Origin: a virus
IMG/VR virus record: IMGVR_UViG_3300045988_163776
Coordinates: 128,001-155,695 of that record
Reading direction: 5' to 3' (one strand)
Length of the DNA stretch: 27,695 nt
The position numbers and the translations under genes are program-made. The notes beneath the pieces are model-generated. The model made no database searches and was not told the DNA's origin. It saw nothing but the letters and a program-made list of their open reading frames with translations. Below, in pieces: positions 4,269-25,759 of this stretch; positions within the stretch are counted from its first letter, which is position 1, and the number at the start of each line of letters is the position of its first letter.

Positions 4269-5294
4269 ATGCTTACTTTTTCAGAACAGCAATTTAAAAC
4301 TTTTAAGCAAATTGCCCAGTTAAAACAATCTGGTTTGAAAAAGGTTTTAGTGTCTTTCTTAAGAAAACATTATAGCCAAAACCGAGTTTTTTACTCTGAG
4401 CATTATATTTATGCTATTGGAGATATTCCTATTGCATTAGTGGCGCATTTAGACACTGTTCATAAAAAAATTCCAAGTCAAATATTTTGGGACAGAGAAG
4501 AAGATGTGGTTTGGAGTCCCCAAGGGTTAGGGGCAGATGATAGGGCTGGAGTATATGCTATTATGCAGATTATTTCTTCTGGACTACGACCTCACATTAT
4601 TTTTACGACAGATGAAGAAATTGGTGGAATAGGAGCTATTTTATTATCTAAACGAACAAATCCTTTTGCAGATTTACGTTATATGATAGAGCTTGACCGC
4701 AGAGGTTTTACAGATTGTGTTTTTTATGATTGTAATAATAAAGATTTTGAAAAATATATAGAATCTTTTGGATTTGAGACAGATTGGGGCACCTATTCAG
4801 ATATCTGCGAATTAAGTCCAAGCTGGAAAATTGCAGGTGTAAATTTATCCATAGGATATTTTAATGAGCATTCTTTCGCAGAGTATTTAGAACCTAATAT
4901 ATTAATGAATACTATAAAAAAAGTTAAAGAGATGTTAAAAACACCTAAAGAAGATATTCCTGTGTTTAAATATATTCCTTATAAATCTTCTAAACCGGGT
5001 TTTGTTTACGACACAGATGAAAATTATAAAAAATTAGCTTTAGCTTATGGATATAATTTTTATGATGATGAGATAGGAATAATTTGTTCAGGTTGCCATG
5101 AAGCATTTTTTGAAGATGAAGTATTCCCAGTAAAAAGTGTTGATGGAACTACGAAATATTATTGTCCAGATTGTGTTACAGATAATATAGAATGGTGCAT
5201 TAGGTGTAATGAGCCTTTTGAAAAAGAAAATCCAGAAGATACTAATATATTATGCAAAGATTGTAGAAAAATTAAGGAGGCTTCTTCTAAATGA
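4269..5294 (+). CDS. M20/M28/M42-like metallopeptidase-fold protein with C-terminal zinc ribbon
   Basis: Motifs resemble zinc aminopeptidase families: ALVAHLDTVHKK, GLGADDRAGVYAIMQ, FTTDEEIGGIGA. C-terminus CSGCH...CPDC...CIRC...CKDC resembles the zinc ribbons of the flanking paralogs. ATG 4269 follows RBS AAGGGG. Confidence 0.55.
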   Translation: MLTFSEQQFKTFKQIAQLKQSGLKKVLVSFLRKHYSQNRVFYSEHYIYAIGDIPIALVAHLDTVHKKIPSQIFWDREEDVVWSPQGLGADDRAGVYAIMQIISSGLRPHIIFTTDEEIGGIGAILLSKRTNPFADLRYMIELDRRGFTDCVFYDCNNKDFEKYIESFGFETDWGTYSDICELSPSWKIAGVNLSIGYFNEHSFAEYLEPNILMNTIKKVKEMLKTPKEDIPVFKYIPYKSSKPGFVYDTDENYKKLALAYGYNFYDDEIGIICSGCHEAFFEDEVFPVKSVDGTTKYYCPDCVTDNIEWCIRCNEPFEKENPEDTNILCKDCRKIKEASSK

Positions 5295-6667
5295 GTTGTT
5301 TATTTACAATAGCAAAACAATTTGAACAGGTAATTGATTATTCTCAAGGATTTAAACCGGCACAATCAAAACAAGTTATAAAACAATGGTTTAAAGCTAA
5401 AAAACCTTTCATAAAAAAATTAGGTGGTTTTATATATGAATATCCAGAAACTATAACAACAGATTTATCAGATGCAGAAAAAAGAATGAAAATTAGTGAT
5501 TTTACTGACTGGGTAGAAAGAAAATATGGCTTATATGATTTATCTAATTTTATTACAGCAAATGAAAAAACTTTTTTTGAAAATGCAGTAGCAGAAGAAT
5601 ATAAATATAAAGGTATTATTATACCAAAAGGAATGAAATTATTAAAAGCTTTTAAATATTTTGAAGAGAATAAAGATATTTTAAACGATATTCAAAATGT
5701 GGCAAGTATGTCTATACAAGAAAATAAAATTTCTGGAAAACTATGTTTATCAGTGCATCCACTAGACTTTTTATCCAGTAGCGAGAATACTCTTAATTGG
5801 CGGTCTTGTCATGCCCTTGACGGAGAATATCGCGCGGGGAATTTAAGCTATATGCTTGATGGGAGTACAATAATTTGTTATTTAAAGACAGATGAAGAAG
5901 TAAAGCTTCCACGTTTCCCCTCAAGCGTACCTTGGAACAATAAAAAATGGCGTTGTTTATTATTCTTTTCAGAAAATAATAAAATGATGTTTGCGGGACG
6001 CCCTTATCCATTCGCTGCAAATGGACTTTTAAATAAAATAAGAGATATAGTTCAAGAATTAAAATTGATTGAAGTATTAAATCAACCTTATTGGAGAAAA
6101 CAATACCTTAGCGAATGGCGAAATGATTATGTTGATACTTTTAATTTTTCAGATGGGACACAAGTTAAATTAGAGAGTAGGTTTATTTTAGATTGTTATA
6201 GTGAACTAGTACGTCTGGAAGAAATAATAACAAATGGACAAGGAAGTTGTCATTATAACGATTTGCTATATTCTTCTTGTTATGTGCCTTATTATGTTCA
6301 AGTAGAGTCTGGAGATCATGTCCCAAAGTATAAAAACTATTTTAAAATTGGAGCTAGAACTTTATGCCTTAATTGCGGGAAGTATGAAATATCAGACCCA
6401 GATTCAATGCTATGTGAAGACTGTCTTGATTATTATGATTCAGAAGATTGCTTAGATGAAACATTCTGTTCTGAATGCGGAGCAATAGTTGAAGAGGGTG
6501 AAGGAGAGTTTGCTGCAACAGGGGAGTTTTTATGCCCTCATTGTATAGAAGAATATACCCAAAGATGCTATAAATGTAATGCACGATATTATCAAAATGA
6601 TATGTCTGTTGTTCGAGATGAAGATAATACTCATGTACATTGGATTTGTGCAAATTGTAAGGAATAG
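5291..6667 (+). CDS. Cys-rich zinc-ribbon protein, paralog family A (function unknown)
   Basis: 458 aa. ATG overlaps the previous stop (ATGA) and follows RBS AAGGAGG. Shares LCLSVHPLDFLSSSENTLNWRSCH...GEYRAGN...WNNKKWR with the 1092-2735 product, and a C-terminal CxxC-rich region. Terminates at TAG 6665-6667, with an in-frame TAA 11 codons downstream. Confidence 0.8.
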   Translation: MSCLFTIAKQFEQVIDYSQGFKPAQSKQVIKQWFKAKKPFIKKLGGFIYEYPETITTDLSDAEKRMKISDFTDWVERKYGLYDLSNFITANEKTFFENAVAEEYKYKGIIIPKGMKLLKAFKYFEENKDILNDIQNVASMSIQENKISGKLCLSVHPLDFLSSSENTLNWRSCHALDGEYRAGNLSYMLDGSTIICYLKTDEEVKLPRFPSSVPWNNKKWRCLLFFSENNKMMFAGRPYPFAANGLLNKIRDIVQELKLIEVLNQPYWRKQYLSEWRNDYVDTFNFSDGTQVKLESRFILDCYSELVRLEEIITNGQGSCHYNDLLYSSCYVPYYVQVESGDHVPKYKNYFKIGARTLCLNCGKYEISDPDSMLCEDCLDYYDSEDCLDETFCSECGAIVEEGEGEFAATGEFLCPHCIEEYTQRCYKCNARYYQNDMSVVRDEDNTHVHWICANCKE

Positions 6668-6689
6668 GAAGAAGAGGAGGAAGAATATT

Positions 6690-7001
6690 ATGGCGGCTAA
6701 AGGAACAGAAGCGAAAAATTTAGTTATTTCAAAAATTAAAGAAGCCTTTGGAGAAGATTATATTTTAACAGAAGGCAGTAAAGTCTATGTGTGGGCAGAA
6801 GATGGAGCTAATGGTAGAGTGCAAATAGCTATGACTTTAACTTGCCCAAAAGTAATGGTTGGCGAATGTGCATCAGTTGCAGTAGTTGGCAATCAGTTGG
6901 ATTTTGAAGCAGAATTGCCGCATGCACAAGTGGACTCTGCGCAAATAACTGAACAGGAAAAAAATAATATTGAAGAACTCATGAAACGTTTGAATCTATA
7001 A
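6690..7001 (+). CDS. hypothetical protein
   Basis: RBS GAGGAGG then ATG 6690. 103 aa. Ends TAA. Confidence 0.65.
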   Translation: MAAKGTEAKNLVISKIKEAFGEDYILTEGSKVYVWAEDGANGRVQIAMTLTCPKVMVGECASVAVVGNQLDFEAELPHAQVDSAQITEQEKNNIEELMKRLNL

Positions 7002-7307: not shown

Positions 7308-7380
7308 TCATCTTATGGTGCAAAAGGATAGCACACTGTTGTACAGCAGAGATAAAGGTTCGAATCCTTGAAAGATGATC
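7308..7380 (+). tRNA. tRNA-like gene, anticodon arm non-canonical
   Basis: Acceptor CATCTTA/AAAGATG. D-arm GTGC-AAAAGGATA-GCAC is nearly identical to the tRNA-Gln D-arm. T-arm AAGG-TTCGAAT-CCTT. The anticodon region CTGTTGTACAGCAG folds only with a 6-nt loop, so isotype is unresolved. Confidence 0.4.
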
Positions 7381-16886: not shown

Positions 16887-16973
16887 TGGGGATTGGTGTA
16901 ATTGGCAACACGCGGGACTCTAAATCCCGAGCTTCTGAGGCGAAAGTTCTGGGTTCGAACCCCAGATCCCCAG
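16887..16973 (+). tRNA. tRNA-Sup (anticodon CTA, reads UAG); type II-like with long variable arm, G73
   Basis: Acceptor TGGGGAT/ATCCCCA (perfect 7 bp). D-arm GTGT-AATTGGCA-ACAC. Anticodon stem CGGGA/TCCCG with loop CT-CTA-AA (U33, A37). Variable region of about 19 nt (AGCTTCTGAGGCGAAAGTT). T-arm CTGGG-TTCGAAC-CCCAG. No encoded CCA. Confidence 0.7.
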
Positions 16974-17036
16974 CGTCATCAAGTAGAAGCCTTTACGTGG
17001 CGATGATATTTAAACTAATTCTACAACATTAAATTA

Positions 17037-17058: not shown

Positions 17059-17092
17059 ACTAATCACATTTTAATTACTCTTTTCAACAGGG

Positions 17093-17120
17093 TTAGGTTT
17101 ATCCTAACCCTTTATTTTTA
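17093..17120 (+). terminator. rho-independent terminator
   Basis: GGGTTAGG-TTTAT-CCTAACCC followed by TTTATTTTT. Closes the tRNA-array transcription unit. Confidence 0.8.
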
Positions 17121-17303
17121 TGCGGTCCGATCGCATTGCCTAATCTATTGCTCCTCGCGCACTAGTTATCCTAAGGGGTACGGGGAATAAAAAAGGCGTT
17201 TTAGAAAATTTTGAACCAAATTTATCATTGGGCAAACCCCAATAAATGATCTTATCTTACTTTTAAAAAATATTGGAATAAAAAAGAAAGGAGTATTAAT
17301 AGA

Positions 17304-17693: not shown

Positions 17694-18389
17694 ATGCCAG
17701 AAATTACAACAAAAGAATATGTTTCTAAAGAACGTTTTGCTCAATATGACACAAAAATAAAAGCATTAATTAAGGATATTGTTGCTAAAAGTGCTTATGA
17801 TGATAGCTCTATTAAGACACAAATTAATGCAAACAAAACAGCTATAGATACTTTAAATGGTGATGCTAGCCAAGTTGGCTCAGTAGCGAAACAAGTTGCT
17901 GATGCAGTAGCTTCTATTGTTGCAAATGCTCCAGAAGCATATGATACATTAGTAGAAATTTCAGATTGGATTAGCTCACATAGTAATGATGCTTCAGCCA
18001 TGAATACTAGTATTTTAGCAAATACTAACGCTATTAATGCATTAAAGACATTAGTAGGTACGCTTCCAGATGGTGCAGCAGCCAAAACGATTATTGAATA
18101 TATTGATTCTAAAGTTACTGGAGTAAAAGATTGGACTGCAGATATAAATACAGCTAAAACAGAAGCTATTTCAACAGCTGCAGGAGACGCAACTACAAAA
18201 GCAGATAAAGCATTAGCAAATGCAAAAGCATACGCAGATGGCCTTGCAACTAATTATGCAACTGCCGCACAGGGTGCAAAAGCAGATACCGCAGTTCAGC
18301 CTGCAGATTTAGGCACAGGGGCTTATATGAACTTAACAGAAGTAACAGAAGAATACATTAATAGTTTATTTACTGCATCATCAAATTAA
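17694..18389 (+). CDS. Ala/Thr-rich coiled-coil structural protein (scaffold/decoration-like)
   Basis: RBS AAGGAGG. 231 aa, low complexity, A/T/K/D-rich helical repeats. Confidence 0.6.
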   Translation: MPEITTKEYVSKERFAQYDTKIKALIKDIVAKSAYDDSSIKTQINANKTAIDTLNGDASQVGSVAKQVADAVASIVANAPEAYDTLVEISDWISSHSNDASAMNTSILANTNAINALKTLVGTLPDGAAAKTIIEYIDSKVTGVKDWTADINTAKTEAISTAAGDATTKADKALANAKAYADGLATNYATAAQGAKADTAVQPADLGTGAYMNLTEVTEEYINSLFTASSN

Positions 18390-18448: not shown

Positions 18449-20881
18449 ATGGATATTGTATCTAAAGAACGTCTTAAATTATATAACGATCTTTTAAAAT
18501 AGCGAGTACCAGACAACAATAATTATGCGAAATTAAGAGAAAAGACTCTTTCTTGTTTAACGACAGATTCTTTAGAATCATATGGCACATACATAAAAGA
18601 TGTTATTTATTATAGAGATCATATCTTATATTGCATAAAAGACACAGATAGTTTATATATAAAATATCCATCCAATAGTACAGTTTCTGAATTTAGTGGC
18701 TGTTTTGGTTCTTTTGAAAACAAAAGTATATATCTATATGAAGATAGCTCTTATTATTATATTTATACTTTAGCCATAAACGCATTAAATATAACTATTA
18801 AACAAGTTAAATTTACAAAAGCAGATGGGAATATATCTTCTTCAAAACCAATTATTACCGCTTACACTGGAGCGTTAAGCAGTGGTGATACTTTATATAA
18901 TTCAGAATTTTATGTTTATAATGATTATGCTTATATTTCTATATTAAATGGCAGTACTTATTATGTAAAGAAATTGAATTTATCATCTTCTATAACAATA
19001 AGTGATTTATATAGTAGTAGTAGTCCATTTTATATAAAGCCAGACGTATTTGATCTTTCTTGCTTTTATATATTAAATGCTACATCAGTAAAAAAAATAA
19101 GTGCAGATGGCAGCTTACAATCTACTACTAATTTACCTTATACGATTTCAACGACTGGCTTTATAGATTACTTTAACAATTATGTGGTTTATACTACAAA
19201 TGGTTTAATTTTTTATATTACAAATTTAACCACAAGCCAAACTAATATGATAGTTTGTGAAGATGATGTACCTCTTTTAGACAGCTCTAATATAAGAACT
19301 TTAAAAATAAAGAAAATTACTAATAAAGGTGCATTACAATTTTATTTAGGTTTAACAGAAGGAAGACATATTAAATTTTATAGTGATACAACATCATTTG
19401 TAAGATTAGAATATTCATTTATCGATCCTTCTAATAAAGTAATATTAAAAATAGTGGCAGACCCTTATAAAAACACTGAAAATATTTTAATTACTTATGA
19501 TACATAGGCAAAATAGATTAGGGTATTAAATGAAAATATATAGGCCTCTGGAGCTGGAATTTTAGCCAGATTACAAGATACTACTAAGCAACAAATCGCA
19601 GAGTTAACAAAAGTAAAAGATACAGTTAAAACTAATTCTGCTAACATTGGCACAATGCAATATGATATTACTCACTTAACAAACACTGTAAATATAAAGA
19701 CTTCAGATCTTGAGAAAAAAATTGTTCCAACATATAAGAATCAAGGGCTATGCGGAACAGACAGTATTGATAATTATAAAACATATGGAGTATATGCTAT
19801 TTACTCATCATCTAGTACTCCATCTGGATTGCCTTTAGATAGAGCTACAAATGAAAAAATATATTTATTTATTATAAACACTCCTTCCGTTGGAGATGAT
19901 TGTATACAAACTTTATATTACACAAAATAGAAAATAACATATCGTAGATTTTATGCAGCAGGAGAAACAGTATGGAGTGATTGGTAGAAAATTATTAATA
20001 CTCCTGAAGCTCTAAAGAATCCAAATGCACTAACACTTACTGTAAATGGTACTAGTATCCCATATGATGGTTCAGCCGCAAAAAGCTCTACATGGTATGC
20101 GCCTACTGGGGCTGGGACCAAAGGACATCAATTAGTGTCTAATGGCGCAGGTGCGCCGGTATGGGAACAACCTCCATACGCAACATGCGCAAGCACTTCG
20201 ACAGTATATGCTAAAGCAATAACAATTCCTAATTTTACTCCAGTAGCTGGAAAGCATATTTTTATTAAATTTAGCAATGCTTCATATTCTCATGTAAATA
20301 CGGCTATTAATTTATAGGTGAATGGAGTGACTAATGCAGTATACCAAAATGGTAAGGCTGTTACTGGCACAACAATGTATGCTTGGTTAGCTAATGATAT
20401 TGTTGAATTTATGTTTGATGGTAGCTATTGGCATATTATATAGATTGTTAATCGTGTAGAAGAAAATAATACTGTTGCACATACTATGAACATTGATGAT
20501 AATGGTGTGGCAATAAATACTGGTGGATATCCTGACAGTGATGCTTGGACAAAAGTATTGACTATTCCAGGGGCAAGCAGTTTAGATGTTACAGTAATAT
20601 ATTAGTCAGAATCGGCTACATATGATTGGGGTTGTGTATGGGTCGGCAACTATCCAGATTTTACTGCAGCCGCAAATTATTCAACATCTTTAACCAATAA
20701 ATTAGCTGGTAAGACAAAAACAACCGCAAATTATCAAGTAAAAGGAGATACAGTCACAGTAGCTTGGAAGTCTGATGGTTCTTCGCATAGTTATTATGGT
20801 CTTTATGTAAGCATAAAGCCTAGTCCTGTTGGAGGAATTTCTTTCTCTTCTAGTTTAACATATGAGCCTATAACGACATAA
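18449..20881 (+). CDS. large tail-fiber/receptor-binding-like protein (about 810 aa) with 9 in-frame TAG sense codons
   Basis: RBS AAGGAGG then ATG 18449. One uninterrupted frame to TAA 20879-20881 except for TAG at 18500, 19505, 19514, 19541, 19928, 19985, 20315, 20441 and 20603. Track ORFs 18974-19507, 19655-19930 and 20135-20317 are all in this same frame. Ser/Thr/Asn/Tyr-rich, beta-rich composition typical of fibre proteins. Confidence 0.7.
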
Positions 20882-20937: not shown

Positions 20938-21540
20938 ATGCCAAGTGTTGTAAATCCAACAGACAAACTAGTGCTAACAGATACAACTTTAGAATTGCTC
21001 GTAGATCAAATACGAAATGAAATTCAAAAATTGTATAGTGCTTCTAATTTTAAAAATGTAGAGTATTTAGCTTCAGCAGAAGATGGTGGAAGTAATAAAC
21101 TTATTATTACATTAAACGATGATAGCAAAAGAGAATACATTATAAAAAATGGTAATGCTGGCGCAGATGCGAAAGTTACTGCGGAAGCAAGTATACCAAC
21201 TGATGATACTGTCGGAACTCCTTCTGTGTCTGTAGATTATAGTGTAGGAGCAGACAATACAACGAATTTAATTTTTAATTTTTCACACTTAAAAGGCGCT
21301 ACTGGTGCGGCAGGTCCACAAGGGCCATAGGGAGAACGAGGTCTACAAGGTCTGCAGGGCCCTCAAGGAGAAAAGGGAAATACTGGCGCAACTGGTCCAA
21401 GAGGTGCAACAGGCCCTCAAGGTATATAGGGTATACAAGGTCCTTAGGGAGAAAAGGGCGACCCAGGACCACAGGGTCCACAAGGCCCAAGTGTAATTAG
21501 TTTAAGTGATGACTTAAATTATGAAGGAGTAACTTTATAA
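20938..21540 (+). CDS. collagen-like (Gly-X-Y repeat) tail-fibre protein with 3 in-frame TAG codons
   Basis: Strong RBS AAGAGGGAGG. After about 130 aa, the sequence GATGAAGPQGP-[TAG]-GERGLQGLQGPQGEKGNTGATGPRGATGPQGI-[TAG]-GIQGP-[TAG]-GEKGDPGPQGPQGPS follows, then ...VISLSDDLNYEGVTL and TAA at 21538-21540. The TAGs sit exactly where Gln (CAA/CAG) occurs in neighbouring repeats. Confidence 0.75.
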
Positions 21541-23311: not shown

Positions 23312-24241
23312 ATGCAATTAAAGTATTCTCATGGCGCATTACTTTCTCCAAAAGATGATAGAGATTATTAGTTTACAGATTTGATTGCGGGAGTTCGTTT
23401 AAGCGAGCTCCCTTCTGAGTATATAAATCCTTTAGTTCATAATGTTCCTGTTGTGGATTAGGGGTAGTCAGAAACTTGCGTAGCTTGCTCATTAACGTAT
23501 TTACGCTGGCTAACCGAACGGACGCAATCAAACAATGAAAAACAATTCTCACCAAGCTATATCTACGGCAATAGAGATAGCTTTGGATACATGGGAGAAG
23601 GTATGATAGTGCGTGAAGCACTTCAAACTTTAAGAAAGCAAGGAGTTTGTTATTATGAAGATCTACCTGGTTTTTATGATGTACAGACTTCAATTAAACA
23701 ATATAGACAAAACAGAGATACGCTTGATCCTAAAGCATATCCTTTCAGAATTTCATCATTCTATGCAGTTAGTGGAATAGAAGGAATTAAGAATGCAGTT
23801 TATAATTTAGGCGGAGTAATAGTTAGTTATCCAGTTTATTATTGTCTATATTCTCCAGATAAAGAGGGAAAAATTCAATTTGATAATAGTGTGTAGAATT
23901 TCCAAAATGGTTATCACGCAATGACTATAGTAGGATGGACTTCTACACATTGGATAGTTCTTAATTCTTGGGGAAAGAACTGGGGTAAAGATGGAATCTG
24001 CTACATTCCTTTTAGTTATCCAATAGCAGAAGCTTGGGGAATAGTAGATCAAATTACGGAGGTTATATTTAAAATGGCAAAATTTATTGATACAGAAGGT
24101 CATTGGGCAGAACAGGCTATTGATAAGGCTGCTGACAAAGGTGTTGTAAGTGGCTTTGAAGATGGGCTATTCCATCCAGATGAACCAATCACAAGAGCAT
24201 AGTTATGTTCAATCCTTGATAGACTAGGATTGTTTAACTAA
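23312..24241 (+). CDS. papain-like (C1 family) cysteine peptidase with C-terminal SLH domain; 6 in-frame TAG codons including both catalytic-motif Gln
   Basis: RBS AAAAAGGAGAG then ATG 23312. VVD-[TAG]-G-[TAG]-SETCVACS reproduces the papain DQGQ..C..C active-site motif only if TAG is Gln. Downstream YHAMTIVGW (His) and VLNSWGKNWGKDGICYI (Asn-Ser-Trp-Gly, the NSWGxxWG motif) follow. The C-terminus FIDTEGHWAEQAIDKAADKGVVSGFEDGLFHPDEPITRA-Q is an SLH-domain consensus. Further TAGs at 23369, 23894 and 24200. Ends TAA 24239-24241. Confidence 0.75.
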
Positions 24242-24414: not shown

Positions 24415-24522
24415 ATGAAATTATATATTTACAAGTGGGACAATGATACTTTTATAGGAAGCAATAAAGGCTATATGGTAAAATATGAAGAAAAGCAGAG
24501 GTTTATAGATGCTATCTCTTAA
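24415..24522 (+). CDS. small peptide (35 aa) immediately upstream of and overlapping the radical SAM gene; candidate substrate/precursor peptide
   Basis: Strong RBS AAGGAGAATAATTAAA then ATG. MKLYIYKWDNDTFIGSNKGYMVKYEEKQRFIDAIS. The TAA at 24520-24522 overlaps the start of the next gene. Confidence 0.4.
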   Translation: MKLYIYKWDNDTFIGSNKGYMVKYEEKQRFIDAIS

Positions 24523-25759
24523 AGAATATAAAGAAGAATACCATTGTCCAATAATCGCTTGCTTAAACATAACAAATCAATGTAATCTTAAATGTCGCTA
24601 TTGCTTTGTAAATCAGAATCCAGAACGCATGTCTTTTGAAACTGCTACAACAGCAGTAACTTATTTATATAAGAACCTAACTGCGCGACGGGAAAAAACT
24701 GGGAATCCGCACCTAAAAGGCACTATTAATTTTTTTGGTGGTGAGCCACTTTTGGAATGGTCTTTAATAAAACGATTAACAGAATGGATAGAAGAAAAGT
24801 ATGCTAATTGTTTCAATTTAGGCATTACAACTAATGGTACACTATTGAACAAACAAATTATAGATTTTTTATATGAACATAAAATAATACCTTTGTTATC
24901 AATGGATGGGGATAGAGAAACACAAGAATATAATAGACCTTGCAAACTTAGAGGTAGTAGTTTTGATTTGGTTAAAACGCATTTATCTTATCTGCTGGAA
25001 AAATTCCCTAATACAGTATTTCGCATGACTATATATGAGGATACTTGTGATAAATTATTTGATAATATTATATTTGCAGAACAACAAGGCTTTAAGTATT
25101 TCTATGCAACTCCAGATAGTAGACATAATTTTTCTAAAGAAAATTTAAAAAAATTAAAAATAGAATTAGAAAAATTTTATAGTTACTTCACTATTAGTCT
25201 AATAAATGGCATTAAACCAATAGAGAGTAGCTTTATAAGAGATATGTTCCTAGGAGTATTGCGTGAGCCTAGTCTTAAGGTTAATGAACTAGACCAATTA
25301 ATACCAAGAGATATAATGAGATGTGGCCTTGGTACTGTAAGCATTAGTATTAGTCCAGATGGTAGTATATATGGGTGCCAAGAACAAGTAACTAATAATA
25401 AAGAAAATAATCTTTTTTATTTAGGGGATATATATAAAGGAATCGCGGGCGACCACCATATCAAGCTTTTAAGTGAATACAGATCGCTTTCCGCAATCAC
25501 AAGTGAATCCGCAAGTTTATGCGAAGATTGTGGGTATCGTAAATTATGTTATCAAGTTCAATGTCCTTCAATGGCAAAACAAAGATTTGATAATTTTTTT
25601 ATATTGCCAGAGACAATGTGCTTCTGGAATCGAACTTTATATGATTTAACAAAACAAGTTTTATCAATATATAATGAAAATATAGAACGATATTTAACAG
25701 AAATAATTGAGGAGGAAGAGGAATATGAGTTATATTGTAGGAGGAACAACTTATCCTGA
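24509..25759 (+). CDS. radical SAM enzyme with C-terminal SPASM/twitch domain
   Basis: N-terminal CNLKCRYC (CxxxCxxC, the SAM-cluster motif). C-terminal Cys clusters MRCGLGTVSISISPDGSIYGCQEQ and CEDCGYRKLCYQVQCP are typical of SPASM-domain maturases. 416 aa. Confidence 0.75.
   Translation: MLSLKEYKEEYHCPIIACLNITNQCNLKCRYCFVNQNPERMSFETATTAVTYLYKNLTARREKTGNPHLKGTINFFGGEPLLEWSLIKRLTEWIEEKYANCFNLGITTNGTLLNKQIIDFLYEHKIIPLLSMDGDRETQEYNRPCKLRGSSFDLVKTHLSYLLEKFPNTVFRMTIYEDTCDKLFDNIIFAEQQGFKYFYATPDSRHNFSKENLKKLKIELEKFYSYFTISLINGIKPIESSFIRDMFLGVLREPSLKVNELDQLIPRDIMRCGLGTVSISISPDGSIYGCQEQVTNNKENNLFYLGDIYKGIAGDHHIKLLSEYRSLSAITSESASLCEDCGYRKLCYQVQCPSMAKQRFDNFFILPETMCFWNRTLYDLTKQVLSIYNENIERYLTEIIEEEEEYELYCRRNNLS

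Follow-up and report, generated by a model that had tools for sequence, protein, structure and literature searches.

An amber-suppressor tRNA of a recoded gut phage carries a glutamine anticodon-loop copy that may act as an identity element

Suppressor tRNAs that decode the amber codon as glutamine are already known from gut phages, as are the theta ribozymes that lie beside them. Escherichia coli supE and the tRNA-Sup(CUA) of gut phages using genetic code 15 (Lak, crAss-like, phAss-1, Garnet/Topaz) place a CUA anticodon on a Gln-type body, and in these phages in-frame TAG codons of late genes are read as Gln by a tRNA that a host enzyme charges. How phage suppressors come to be charged is stated to be an open question in a survey of recoded phages (bioRxiv 2021.08.26.457843), and E. 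coli GlnRS loses up to 1e4-1e5-fold in kcat when the anticodon determinants of tRNA-Gln are mutated (PMC9976931). Here, a stretch of 27,695 nucleotides (positions 128,001 to 155,695 of IMG/VR record IMGVR_UViG_3300045988_163776, hereafter the window) from a ~156-kb human-gut phage recovered from a metagenome is analyzed for the tRNA with CUA anticodon that it encodes at 16887-16973 on the plus strand. The code 15 suppressors have been described as ordinary cloverleaves, whereas this tRNA carries a copy of the Gln anticodon loop in its variable position.

Partial parallels to such an arrangement exist in other systems. The type II tRNAs (bacterial Ser, Leu, Tyr, and Sec) likewise have one more helix, placed between the anticodon and T arms, that aids recognition by the synthetase, but these arms are read by their shape, length, and orientation, end in short loops unrelated to an anticodon, and in the Ser and Leu systems belong to an anticodon-independent mode of recognition. 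In the design described here, by contrast, the sequence of the loop is conserved and is that of the cognate anticodon loop, and GlnRS and TrpRS are strongly anticodon-dependent. Hairpins that copy a cognate anticodon loop for a synthetase are found in the thrS operator of E. coli, in the mRNAs of yeast aminoacyl-tRNA synthetases, and in viral tRNA-like structures (PMC9976931); those mimics belong to mRNAs or to the genomes of viruses, where they act in regulation or tag the genome, whereas the present one lies within a decoding tRNA. In the allo-tRNAs and the nematode nev-tRNAs, some of which are suppressors, a variable arm also uncouples identity from the anticodon (PMC5389517), but nev-tRNAs have Leu-type arms, and allo-tRNAs combine an 8/4 or 9/3 acceptor/T arrangement with Ser or Ala identity. 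The window tRNA, with a 7-bp acceptor stem, a 5-bp T-stem, a Gln-type body, and an arm that copies an anticodon loop, falls outside the allo-tRNAs.

A Gln-type tRNA with two anticodon-type loops

ARAGORN calls a tRNA with CUA anticodon at 16887-16974 (+), printed as "tRNA-Pyl", its generic label for that anticodon, and the Rfam tRNA model RF00005 matches 16887-16973 with 57.7 bits (E=3e-10) against a gathering score of 29, which makes the gene a member of that family. The tRNA measures 87 nt up to the discriminator, has a 7/5 acceptor/T arrangement without an encoded CCA, and adopts a cloverleaf as its minimum-free-energy fold. Its acceptor stem (UGGGGAU/AUCCCCA, 7 bp) opens with U1-A72 and is followed by the discriminator G16973; U8-G9 lead into a 4-bp D-stem (GUGU/ACAC, with G10:C25) that encloses the D-loop AAUUGGCA, and G26 precedes the decoding anticodon arm CGGGA-CUCUAAA-UCCCG at 16913-16929 (+). 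The 5-bp stem of this arm carries a 7-nt loop with U33, in which CUA (16920-16922) reads UAG, and the loop is unchanged in all 80 members of the family described below. A variable region of 19 nt, AGCUUCUGAGGCGAAAGUU (16930-16948), separates it from the T-arm CUGGG-UUCGAAC-CCCAG, whose stem has 5 bp. A first-pass annotation of the window, made from its letters, had proposed a tRNA with CUA anticodon at this place and named tRNA-calling software as the check; ARAGORN and Rfam agree with it on position and anticodon, ARAGORN returning CUA for the region, and its structural details (7-bp acceptor, 4-bp D-stem, 5-bp anticodon stem, a CU-CUA-AA loop, 19 nt, and G73) are all correct. Its description of an unusual, type-II-like architecture was right in that the long variable region is real, but it overlooked both the hairpin with a Gln anticodon loop within that region and a candidate ribozyme at the 3' end.

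The hairpin in question forms the extra, variable-position arm at 16930-16948 (+), which consists of an A, the element GC-UUCUGAG-GC, and a tail GAAAGUU. Its loop, UU-CUG-AG (16933-16939), presents the pseudo-anticodon CUG at 16935-16937, and 9 nt separate the loop from the T-stem. The anticodons of Gln are CUG and UUG.

The remainder of the molecule is likewise of the Gln type. The identity set of bacterial tRNA-Gln comprises G73, U1-A72, G2-C71, G3-C70, and G10 together with U34, U35, G36, A37, and U38 (PMC9976931), and every acceptor and D element of this set (U1-A72, G2-C71, G3-C70, G73, G10) is present in the window tRNA. The true anticodon loop retains U35 and A37 but has A36 and A38, while the loop of the extra arm provides equivalents of C34, U35, G36, and A37 at 16935-16938. 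With G36 lost from the true loop, and with a variable region of 19 nt where the type I architecture has 4-5 nt, the molecule is therefore not a canonical tRNA-Gln, and the arm would have to be read for it to function as one. When tRNA bodies were compared with the extra arm and the anticodon loop masked, the three nearest neighbors among 1,215 phage tRNAs were all tRNA-Gln (score 0.67; best Ser 0.42). The phage's own ordinary tRNA-Gln(UUG), which has a short variable loop and served as comparator (11200-11275, +), shares with it UGGGG...CCCCA-G, U8-G9, and a GUG D-stem. By these sequence features the window tRNA is a derivative of tRNA-Gln. In a 54-sequence alignment of the family, position 1:72 is U-A, A-U, or mismatched (unpaired in 20/54) and never G-C-rich, and such pairs suit both GlnRS and GatCAB.

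How widely the arm is shared was established from related phages and from scans of IMG/VR. Related phages were gathered by means of an AAA ATPase anchor (11309-12400), which gave 51 loci at 42-57% identity. A second protein anchor (17694-18389) returned low-complexity matches alone and no tRNAs, an exact search of IMG/VR for the anticodon arm of the window found no match, and DNA similarity to GenBank phages was limited to generic tRNA-Ser genes. The CUA tRNAs of the 51 loci fall into two size classes, of ~75 nt and of 88-97 nt, and all 10 distinct long ones have an arm loop that reads Y-U-CUG-A-N or, in one of them, CU-UUG-AA. A scan guided by the motif added further members to the family. 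An unbiased scan of IMG/VR, in which the CUA loop and the T-loop were constrained and the arm was left free, yielded 57 distinct long CUA tRNAs. A CUG or UUG loop closed by at least 2 bp is present in 45 of these, CCA in 1, and neither in 11, most of which are classical type II tRNAs with G1.

The loop of these arms is conserved in the manner of an anticodon loop while its stem is not. Among 80 distinct Gln-type arms, for which the selection pattern required the equivalents of U35 and G36, position 32 is a pyrimidine (Y32), U33 is found in 79/80 and A37 in 76/80, position 34 is C in 73 and U in 7, and the closing pair is C:G in 71; the sole third-position alternative to CUG is thus UUG, the other Gln anticodon. 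Stems of 2-5 bp occur in 21 distinct sequences, and in the 54-sequence alignment both partners vary at all 3 pairs tested in the arm helix, with 89% of cells able to pair (one pair, for example, is CG in 26 sequences, GC in 18, UA in 4, UG in 3, and AU in 1). The covariation score of the whole five-helix structure is 0.68, as compared with 0.18 for shuffled alignments (0/500 reach 0.68) and at most 0.19 in slid registers. The distance from pseudo-loop to T-stem is 9 nt in 71/80 arms, which is also the mode of the real tRNA-Gln genes of these phages (34/48), and the 5' side of the pseudo-loop varies from 2 to 11 nt.

The feature is specific to suppressors. When the same test for a Gln anticodon loop was applied to the arms of other long tRNAs as a control, it was positive in 2/85 Ser, 3/98 Leu, and 0/19 Tyr arms (5/202), and among the tRNA-Gln genes of related phages a long arm was found in 0/48. 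Other tRNAs of these phages that do have long arms (Cys, His, Asn, Lys) cap them with GNRA-type loops. Such arms were seen in tRNA-Cys of the loci L014, L017, L019, L026, L027, L029, L035, L040, L043, L046, and L047, as well as in L149 (His), L212 4455-4542 (Asn), and L174 (Lys). One tRNA-Cys(GCA) has U73 and the arm GACCC-GUAA-GGGC, and 13/33 distinct tRNA-Cys genes of these phages have a long arm. A reading of the window arm as a kink-turn or box C/D element, suggested by its CUGA, was dropped since no partner GA element is present.

Amino acids inserted at recoded stops

The genes that this tRNA would serve show what its codon means. With TAG read as sense, the longest open reading frame, otherwise of 550 aa, reaches 816 aa. 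From ~15 kb on there are coherent genes with 10, 9, 5, 4, and 3 in-frame TAGs, while most upstream genes have 0, and the ENA record of the phage calls the same full-length genes. The first among them encodes an HNH-type homing endonuclease, a client of the suppressor with 10 in-frame TAGs (15039-16001, +), followed by an 810-aa, tail-fibre-like structural gene with 9 (18449-20881, +; likewise annotated as one gene of 810 aa by ENA), a collagen-repeat protein with 3 (20938-21540, +), and a papain-family (C1) peptidase with an SLH domain and 5 (23312-24241, +). Although it lies ahead of the suppressor, the HNH gene has more TAGs per codon than any other (10 in 320).

The papain fold has a catalytic Gln at its oxyanion hole, and one TAG of the peptidase stands opposite this residue (VVD-X-G, as against VYD-Q-G in 3ois); the column is Q in 36/38 homologues, including both NCBI proteins that use the standard code, in which no in-frame TAG is possible. 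A further peptidase TAG, at position 297, falls in a column with Q in 27/31. In the HNH protein the TAG columns are Q in 88/120 at position 148 (NCBI subset QQQDQQ, 5/6 Q), Q 86 and E 31 at position 220, and Q 57 and K 20 at position 52. The background frequency of Q in the homologue alignments is 3-4%, and Ser is dominant at no conserved TAG column. Because some database proteins come from recoded phages and print TAG as Q, distant and NCBI-only subsets were checked as a guard against circularity. All 3 TAGs of the collagen-like protein stand at Y of a G-X-Y triplet, where Q dominates (GPQ, GLQ, GIQ); in the alignments of this protein S and Q are both common, and such low-complexity columns are uninformative. 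Since TAG codons align with conserved Gln columns, in the NCBI-only subset as well, it follows from these alignments that TAG is read as Gln in this phage, in agreement with the codon context that had favored Gln in the first-pass annotation. In an E. coli extract, Gln was inserted by 28/29 phage tRNA-CUA (PMC12636597). It is plausible that the window tRNA is the agent of UAG decoding in these mostly late recoded genes, as had been suggested before.

A parallel design occurs in suppressors of the opal codon. Two scans for tRNAs with UCA anticodon, one motif-guided and one unconstrained, both recovered long tRNA(UCA) (93-99 nt) with a 4-7-bp arm hairpin whose loop reads CU/GU-CCA-AA and is usually separated from the T-stem by 9 nt. 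The bodies of these tRNAs (AGGGGCU...AGCCCCU-G) have A1-U72, G2-G5, A9, and G73, the full published bacterial Trp identity set. In IMG/VR they occur at L336, L339, L342, L346-L349, L355, L358, L362, L365, L381, L383, L386, L389, L399, L403, L429, L451, and others. In the unconstrained set 36/69 have the Trp-type arm, with 32 distinct stems, and ~10 more have CCA in a loop of 8-9 nt; most of the remainder resemble tRNA-Sec. True anticodon and pseudo-anticodon are thus closely coupled: CUA goes with a Gln-type arm in 45 cases and a Trp-type arm in 1, and UCA with a Gln-only arm in 0 and a Trp-type arm in 34 (Fisher p = 8e-22, for sequences that are related).

Deletion of the stop-decoding arm in silico suggests how this architecture is built. 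After deletion ARAGORN calls tRNA-Gln in 56/80 of the Gln-type and tRNA-Trp in 42/54 of the Trp-type molecules, and therefore most members can be described as an intact cognate tRNA that has acquired a stop-decoding hairpin between its D-arm and its own, original anticodon arm. The window tRNA receives no ARAGORN call after the same deletion; as 3 nt alone precede its pseudo-loop, its second arm is best viewed as an eroded mini-hairpin of 2-4 bp with the loop kept.

The single exception among the CUA tRNAs is informative. L212/L494, a relative with syntenic early genes, unites a CUA anticodon, a Trp-type body, and a CCA pseudo-loop in one tRNA and has a normal tRNA-Trp beside it (loci L212 7800-7892; L494 14300-14392 and 10001-10606; L493, L495-L497). 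In its SleB-like hydrolase a TAG falls in a column with W 27, Y 14, F 11, and S 1, and the five "Q" in this column are TAG codons of three related lineages that gene callers print as Q. Two other TAGs align with Tyr (in part by eye). These three sites suggest that TAG is read as an aromatic residue in this lineage, as body and pseudo-anticodon would predict. A scan for more CUA tRNAs with a CCA arm returned L212 itself alone, and when L494 proteins were compared by local BLAST with the full set of fetched loci, too few homologues turned up to carry TAG-to-Trp beyond the three sites. A single further case, a 96-nt tRNA-Ile(UAU) in L187 with the Gln-like acceptor UGGGGUG and a long-arm loop CGAUAAA that contains GAU, the common Ile anticodon, may represent a third cognate-anticodon tag, here for an AUA decoder.

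From these patterns a general tRNA design can be proposed, for which the odds appear about even. Phages that reassign stop codons would have inserted a stop-decoding hairpin by the D-arm and kept the original anticodon arm as a portable identity tag, so that the second arm and the acceptor stem would set the amino acid and the first arm the codon. Its scope, held with the same balanced confidence, would extend to UAG-to-Gln with a CUG/UUG tag, UGA-to-Trp with a CCA tag, and, in one lineage, apparently UAG-to-Trp.

A possible route to charging and its alternatives

The change from CUG to CUA that lets the tRNA read UAG removes G36, a major determinant for charging with Gln. The extra arm would supply the lost anticodon determinant to the Gln-charging enzyme of the host, either GlnRS or a non-discriminating GluRS (ND-GluRS) followed by GatCAB. 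Charging with Gln would in that case be efficient and specific, and the true anticodon would still read the stop codon. The 3' end would probably be released by an adjoining ribozyme of the hepatitis delta virus (HDV)-like theta type and then completed with CCA. That the arm is a restored Gln anticodon identity element, read by the host charging enzyme, is the reading that we favor and consider somewhat better than an even bet. The preference of the mimic for C34 (73 CUG vs 7 UUG) would fit an arm unable to rely on modification of U34; the tRNA-Gln genes of the phages themselves are, unlike the pseudo-anticodons, mostly UUG.

A number of considerations weigh against this reading. The variable arm of an ordinary L-shaped tRNA emerges well away from the site at which GlnRS binds the anticodon, and GlnRS is monomeric. 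With the arm so distant, the enzyme monomeric, and stems of 2-7 bp, rigid simultaneous docking of both regions is hard to picture, and the second arm of the window tRNA is not long enough to stand in for the anticodon arm through alternative stacking. A host without GlnRS would leave ND-GluRS and/or GatCAB as the reader, with differing needs. In some subfamilies a competing 4-bp register is present in the arm. Related phages also carry CUA tRNAs of ~75 nt without any arm, which shows that the arm is not obligatory. As to sampling, two of the scans (one CUA, one UCA) were guided by the motif and hence biased by it, for which reason frequencies have been taken from the unbiased scans, and because the sequences are related the counts overstate the number of independent events. 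One phage (L036/L037, 17822-17993) has an ordinary 75-nt CUA suppressor head-to-tail with a 97-nt two-arm CUA suppressor, and thus both designs can coexist.

One alternative, unlikely in our estimation, is that the arm is a relic, either of a duplication of the anticodon arm in a tRNA-Gln(CUG) or of the insertion of a stop hairpin, and is now tolerated and structural at most. Ancestry alone would suffice for the constant 9-nt spacing between loop and T-stem and for the complete cognate tRNA embedded in most members, and such an origin accommodates both the long variable arms common in other tRNAs of these phages and the short CUA suppressors that lack one. It accounts poorly, however, for U33 and A37 equivalents that are nearly invariant while stem, linkers, and body diverge and the stem covaries, or for a window lineage with an eroded stem and a loop that has been kept. 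A relic also leaves unexplained why the only alternative at the third position gives the other Gln anticodon, why the same arrangement recurs with CCA on Trp bodies, and why the long arms of non-suppressors have GNRA loops instead.

Quite unlikely as well is a two-faced tRNA, in which either hairpin could stack under the D-arm: when the CUG arm does so, the molecule would be a tRNA-Gln for the synthetase (and able to read CAG), and when the CUA arm does so it would read UAG. Charging would on this account hinge on a conformational switch, and an arm at the variable position would not need to be recognized. The canonical cognate tRNAs left by removal of the stop arm (56/80 Gln-type, 42/54 Trp-type), the canonical spacing of the second arm from the T-arm, and long forms with stems of 5-6 bp and then 4-5 nt (L036, L147, L199, L202, L315) are all compatible with it, and a CAG read as Gln would be harmless. 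But the window tRNA and its subgroup, with 2-3 nt on the 5' side of the pseudo-loop, cannot form a second full anticodon arm and have kept the loop nonetheless. Moreover, the order is always stop arm 5' and cognate arm 3', and no long arm was seen in the 48 tRNA-Gln genes.

No more probable than the switch is that something other than a charging enzyme reads the loop, such as a factor of the phage, a tRNA-modification enzyme, or a defence system or anticodon nuclease of the host to which the arm would be offered as a decoy, or that the arm sequesters or regulates GlnRS. Regulatory mimics of anticodon arms that bind synthetases are known (the thrS operator and the yeast synthetase mRNAs; PMC9976931), and an arm bound independently of charging would pose no problem of geometry. 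A decoy or regulator, however, need not be restricted to suppressors nor always match the reassigned amino acid, as this arm is and does, and the ordinary tRNA-Gln and tRNA-Trp genes of the phages lack it.

Least of all, a Ser-type suppressor, in which the long arm and G73 would recruit SerRS and UAG would mean Ser, is highly improbable and was discarded in view of the alignments and of the acceptor stem: G73, G2-C71, and the 19-nt variable region are indeed all present, SerRS ignores the anticodon (PMC9976931), and one TAG stands opposite Ser in a single Protein Data Bank (PDB) alignment, but bacterial tRNA-Ser conserves G1-C72 as well as G2-C71 (PMC9976931) where the window tRNA has U1-A72, the 1-72 and 3-70 pairs are those whose swap confers Gln identity on an amber tRNA-Ser (PMC9976931), the arm has a stem of only 2-4 bp and then a 7-nt single-stranded tail, the nearest bodies are tRNA-Gln, and conserved TAG positions are Q, not S. 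The first-pass annotation had taken the long variable region and G73 as Ser-like, which U1-A72, the Gln identity set, the nearest tRNAs, and the TAG columns contradict.

Flanking elements, phage context, and significance

Theta ribozymes adjoin 85% of the tRNA-Sup genes in theta-carrying phages and most often go with tRNAs that lack an encoded CCA (PMC10879173). The window offers a candidate for a minimal ribozyme of this HDV-like class at 16974-17024 (+), which would begin with G16975 and leave C16974 on the tRNA. The predicted elements are P1 (GUCAUC/GAUGAU, 16975-16980/17002-17007, with a G1.U wobble), P2 (GUAGAA/UUCUAC, 16983-16988/17019-17024), P3 (GCC/GGC, 16989-16991/16999-17001), L3 (16992-16998, 7 nt), and J4/2 (CUAA, 17015-17018). 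The full nested double-pseudoknot topology can thus be drawn at G16975-C17024, one nt after the discriminator, and was recovered 0 times in ~1,750 shuffled flanks. The first nucleotide of J4/2, C17015, is the expected catalytic C, although a C-to-U control did not discriminate, the U variant giving equally many hits. Rfam scores are below the family thresholds (CPEB3, 15.7 bits, E=0.036, gathering 35; HDV-F-prausnitzii, 9.7 bits, partial, gathering 44), and no Watson-Crick P1.1 mini-helix is evident in 16975-17024. For want of a clear P1.1 the element remains a candidate for a self-cleaving theta-type ribozyme. Like those of Kienbeck et al. 2024 (PMC10879173), it lies 1-2 nt from the 3' end of a tRNA without encoded CCA in a recoded gut phage; it differs from them in its scores below threshold and in having no obvious P1.1, and that report is silent on tRNA architecture. 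In the relative L184, HDV-F-prausnitzii matches with 26.1 bits (E=0.005) from 2 nt after the tRNA. Clearer copies were also seen after the suppressor tRNAs of L184, L188, L192, L206, and L207 and after the opal suppressor of L358.

On the 5' side, a sigma-70-type promoter-like site at 16788-16816 (+) matches the consensus at 11/12 positions, with TTGAAA, a 17-nt spacer, TATAAT, and the TG of an extended -10, and its pattern is found once in the window where 0.02 would be expected by chance. Judged by this match, transcription probably starts at the tRNA's own promoter. The first-pass annotation had called the site a copy of a conserved promoter. The strong promoter-like site is there, but a search of the window for the 29-mer, with as many as 3 mismatches allowed, or for a looser pattern gave no second copy, and the notion of a repeated promoter was dropped for this stretch. 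Between promoter and tRNA, the 5' leader hairpin at 16829-16876 (+), with a 10-bp stem AAAGACACAG/UUGUGUCUU (16829-16838 with 16867-16876), folds as previously described and appears in both the minimum-free-energy and the centroid folds. An intrinsic-terminator-like hairpin with a T-run lies downstream of the tRNA unit at 17089-17121 (+).

Between 7.3 and 17 kb the window, which has 31% G+C, carries at least 16-19 tRNA genes in an array. Two genes for homing endonucleases lie in or beside the array, one of the GIY-YIG type (9486-10130) and the HNH gene already described. Weak or odd tRNA-like elements occur at 7309-7378, 10296-10367, 11037-11109, 13082-13156, 13182-13252, 13283-13353, and 14589-14673; ARAGORN gives one an "anticodon" of 4 nt (gatt) and another one of 2 nt (aa), and five, with 31-41 bits, are found by Rfam only. 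These elements may be tRNAs that are degenerate or non-canonical. Two large paralogues at 1086-2735 (550 aa) and 5291-6700 (470 aa) share the core LCLS[IV]HPLD...NW.SC and Cys-rich C-termini, and the 550-aa protein has no match in PHROGs. Among the late recoded genes, a radical-SAM protein (Radical_SAM and Fer4_12 domains, 24509-25759) adjoins the peptidase gene with the SLH domain.

That SLH domain and three bins of metagenome-assembled genomes (Bacillota, Bacilli, Acutalibacteraceae) hint weakly at a host among the Bacillota. A scan of bacterial genomes gave at least 120 loci that were mostly chance matches, with 3 genuine among the matches listed, which keeps this assignment weak.

In the full-text literature, for the most part non-subscription, no description was found of an extra arm that copies the cognate anticodon loop, or of its Trp counterpart. 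The reports on phAss-1, the Borges survey, the 2025 suppressor library, the work on theta ribozymes and on allo-tRNAs, and the 2023 review of identity elements describe no anticodon-like arm in a suppressor. If the favored reading is true, a built-in cognate anticodon loop, observed for Gln and independently for Trp, would be a concrete answer to the open question of how suppressors are charged. It would add a tRNA identity element of a novel kind and an architecture, likewise novel, that has two anticodon-type arms, and would explain the odd long "tRNA-Sup" or "tRNA-Pyl" calls made by annotation pipelines. For annotation, the arm loop could predict the amino acid that a recoded stop encodes, as in the possible TAG-to-Trp lineage. 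More broadly, such tRNAs would offer a natural blueprint for codon reassignment with an endogenous synthetase, in which identity is uncoupled from decoding.

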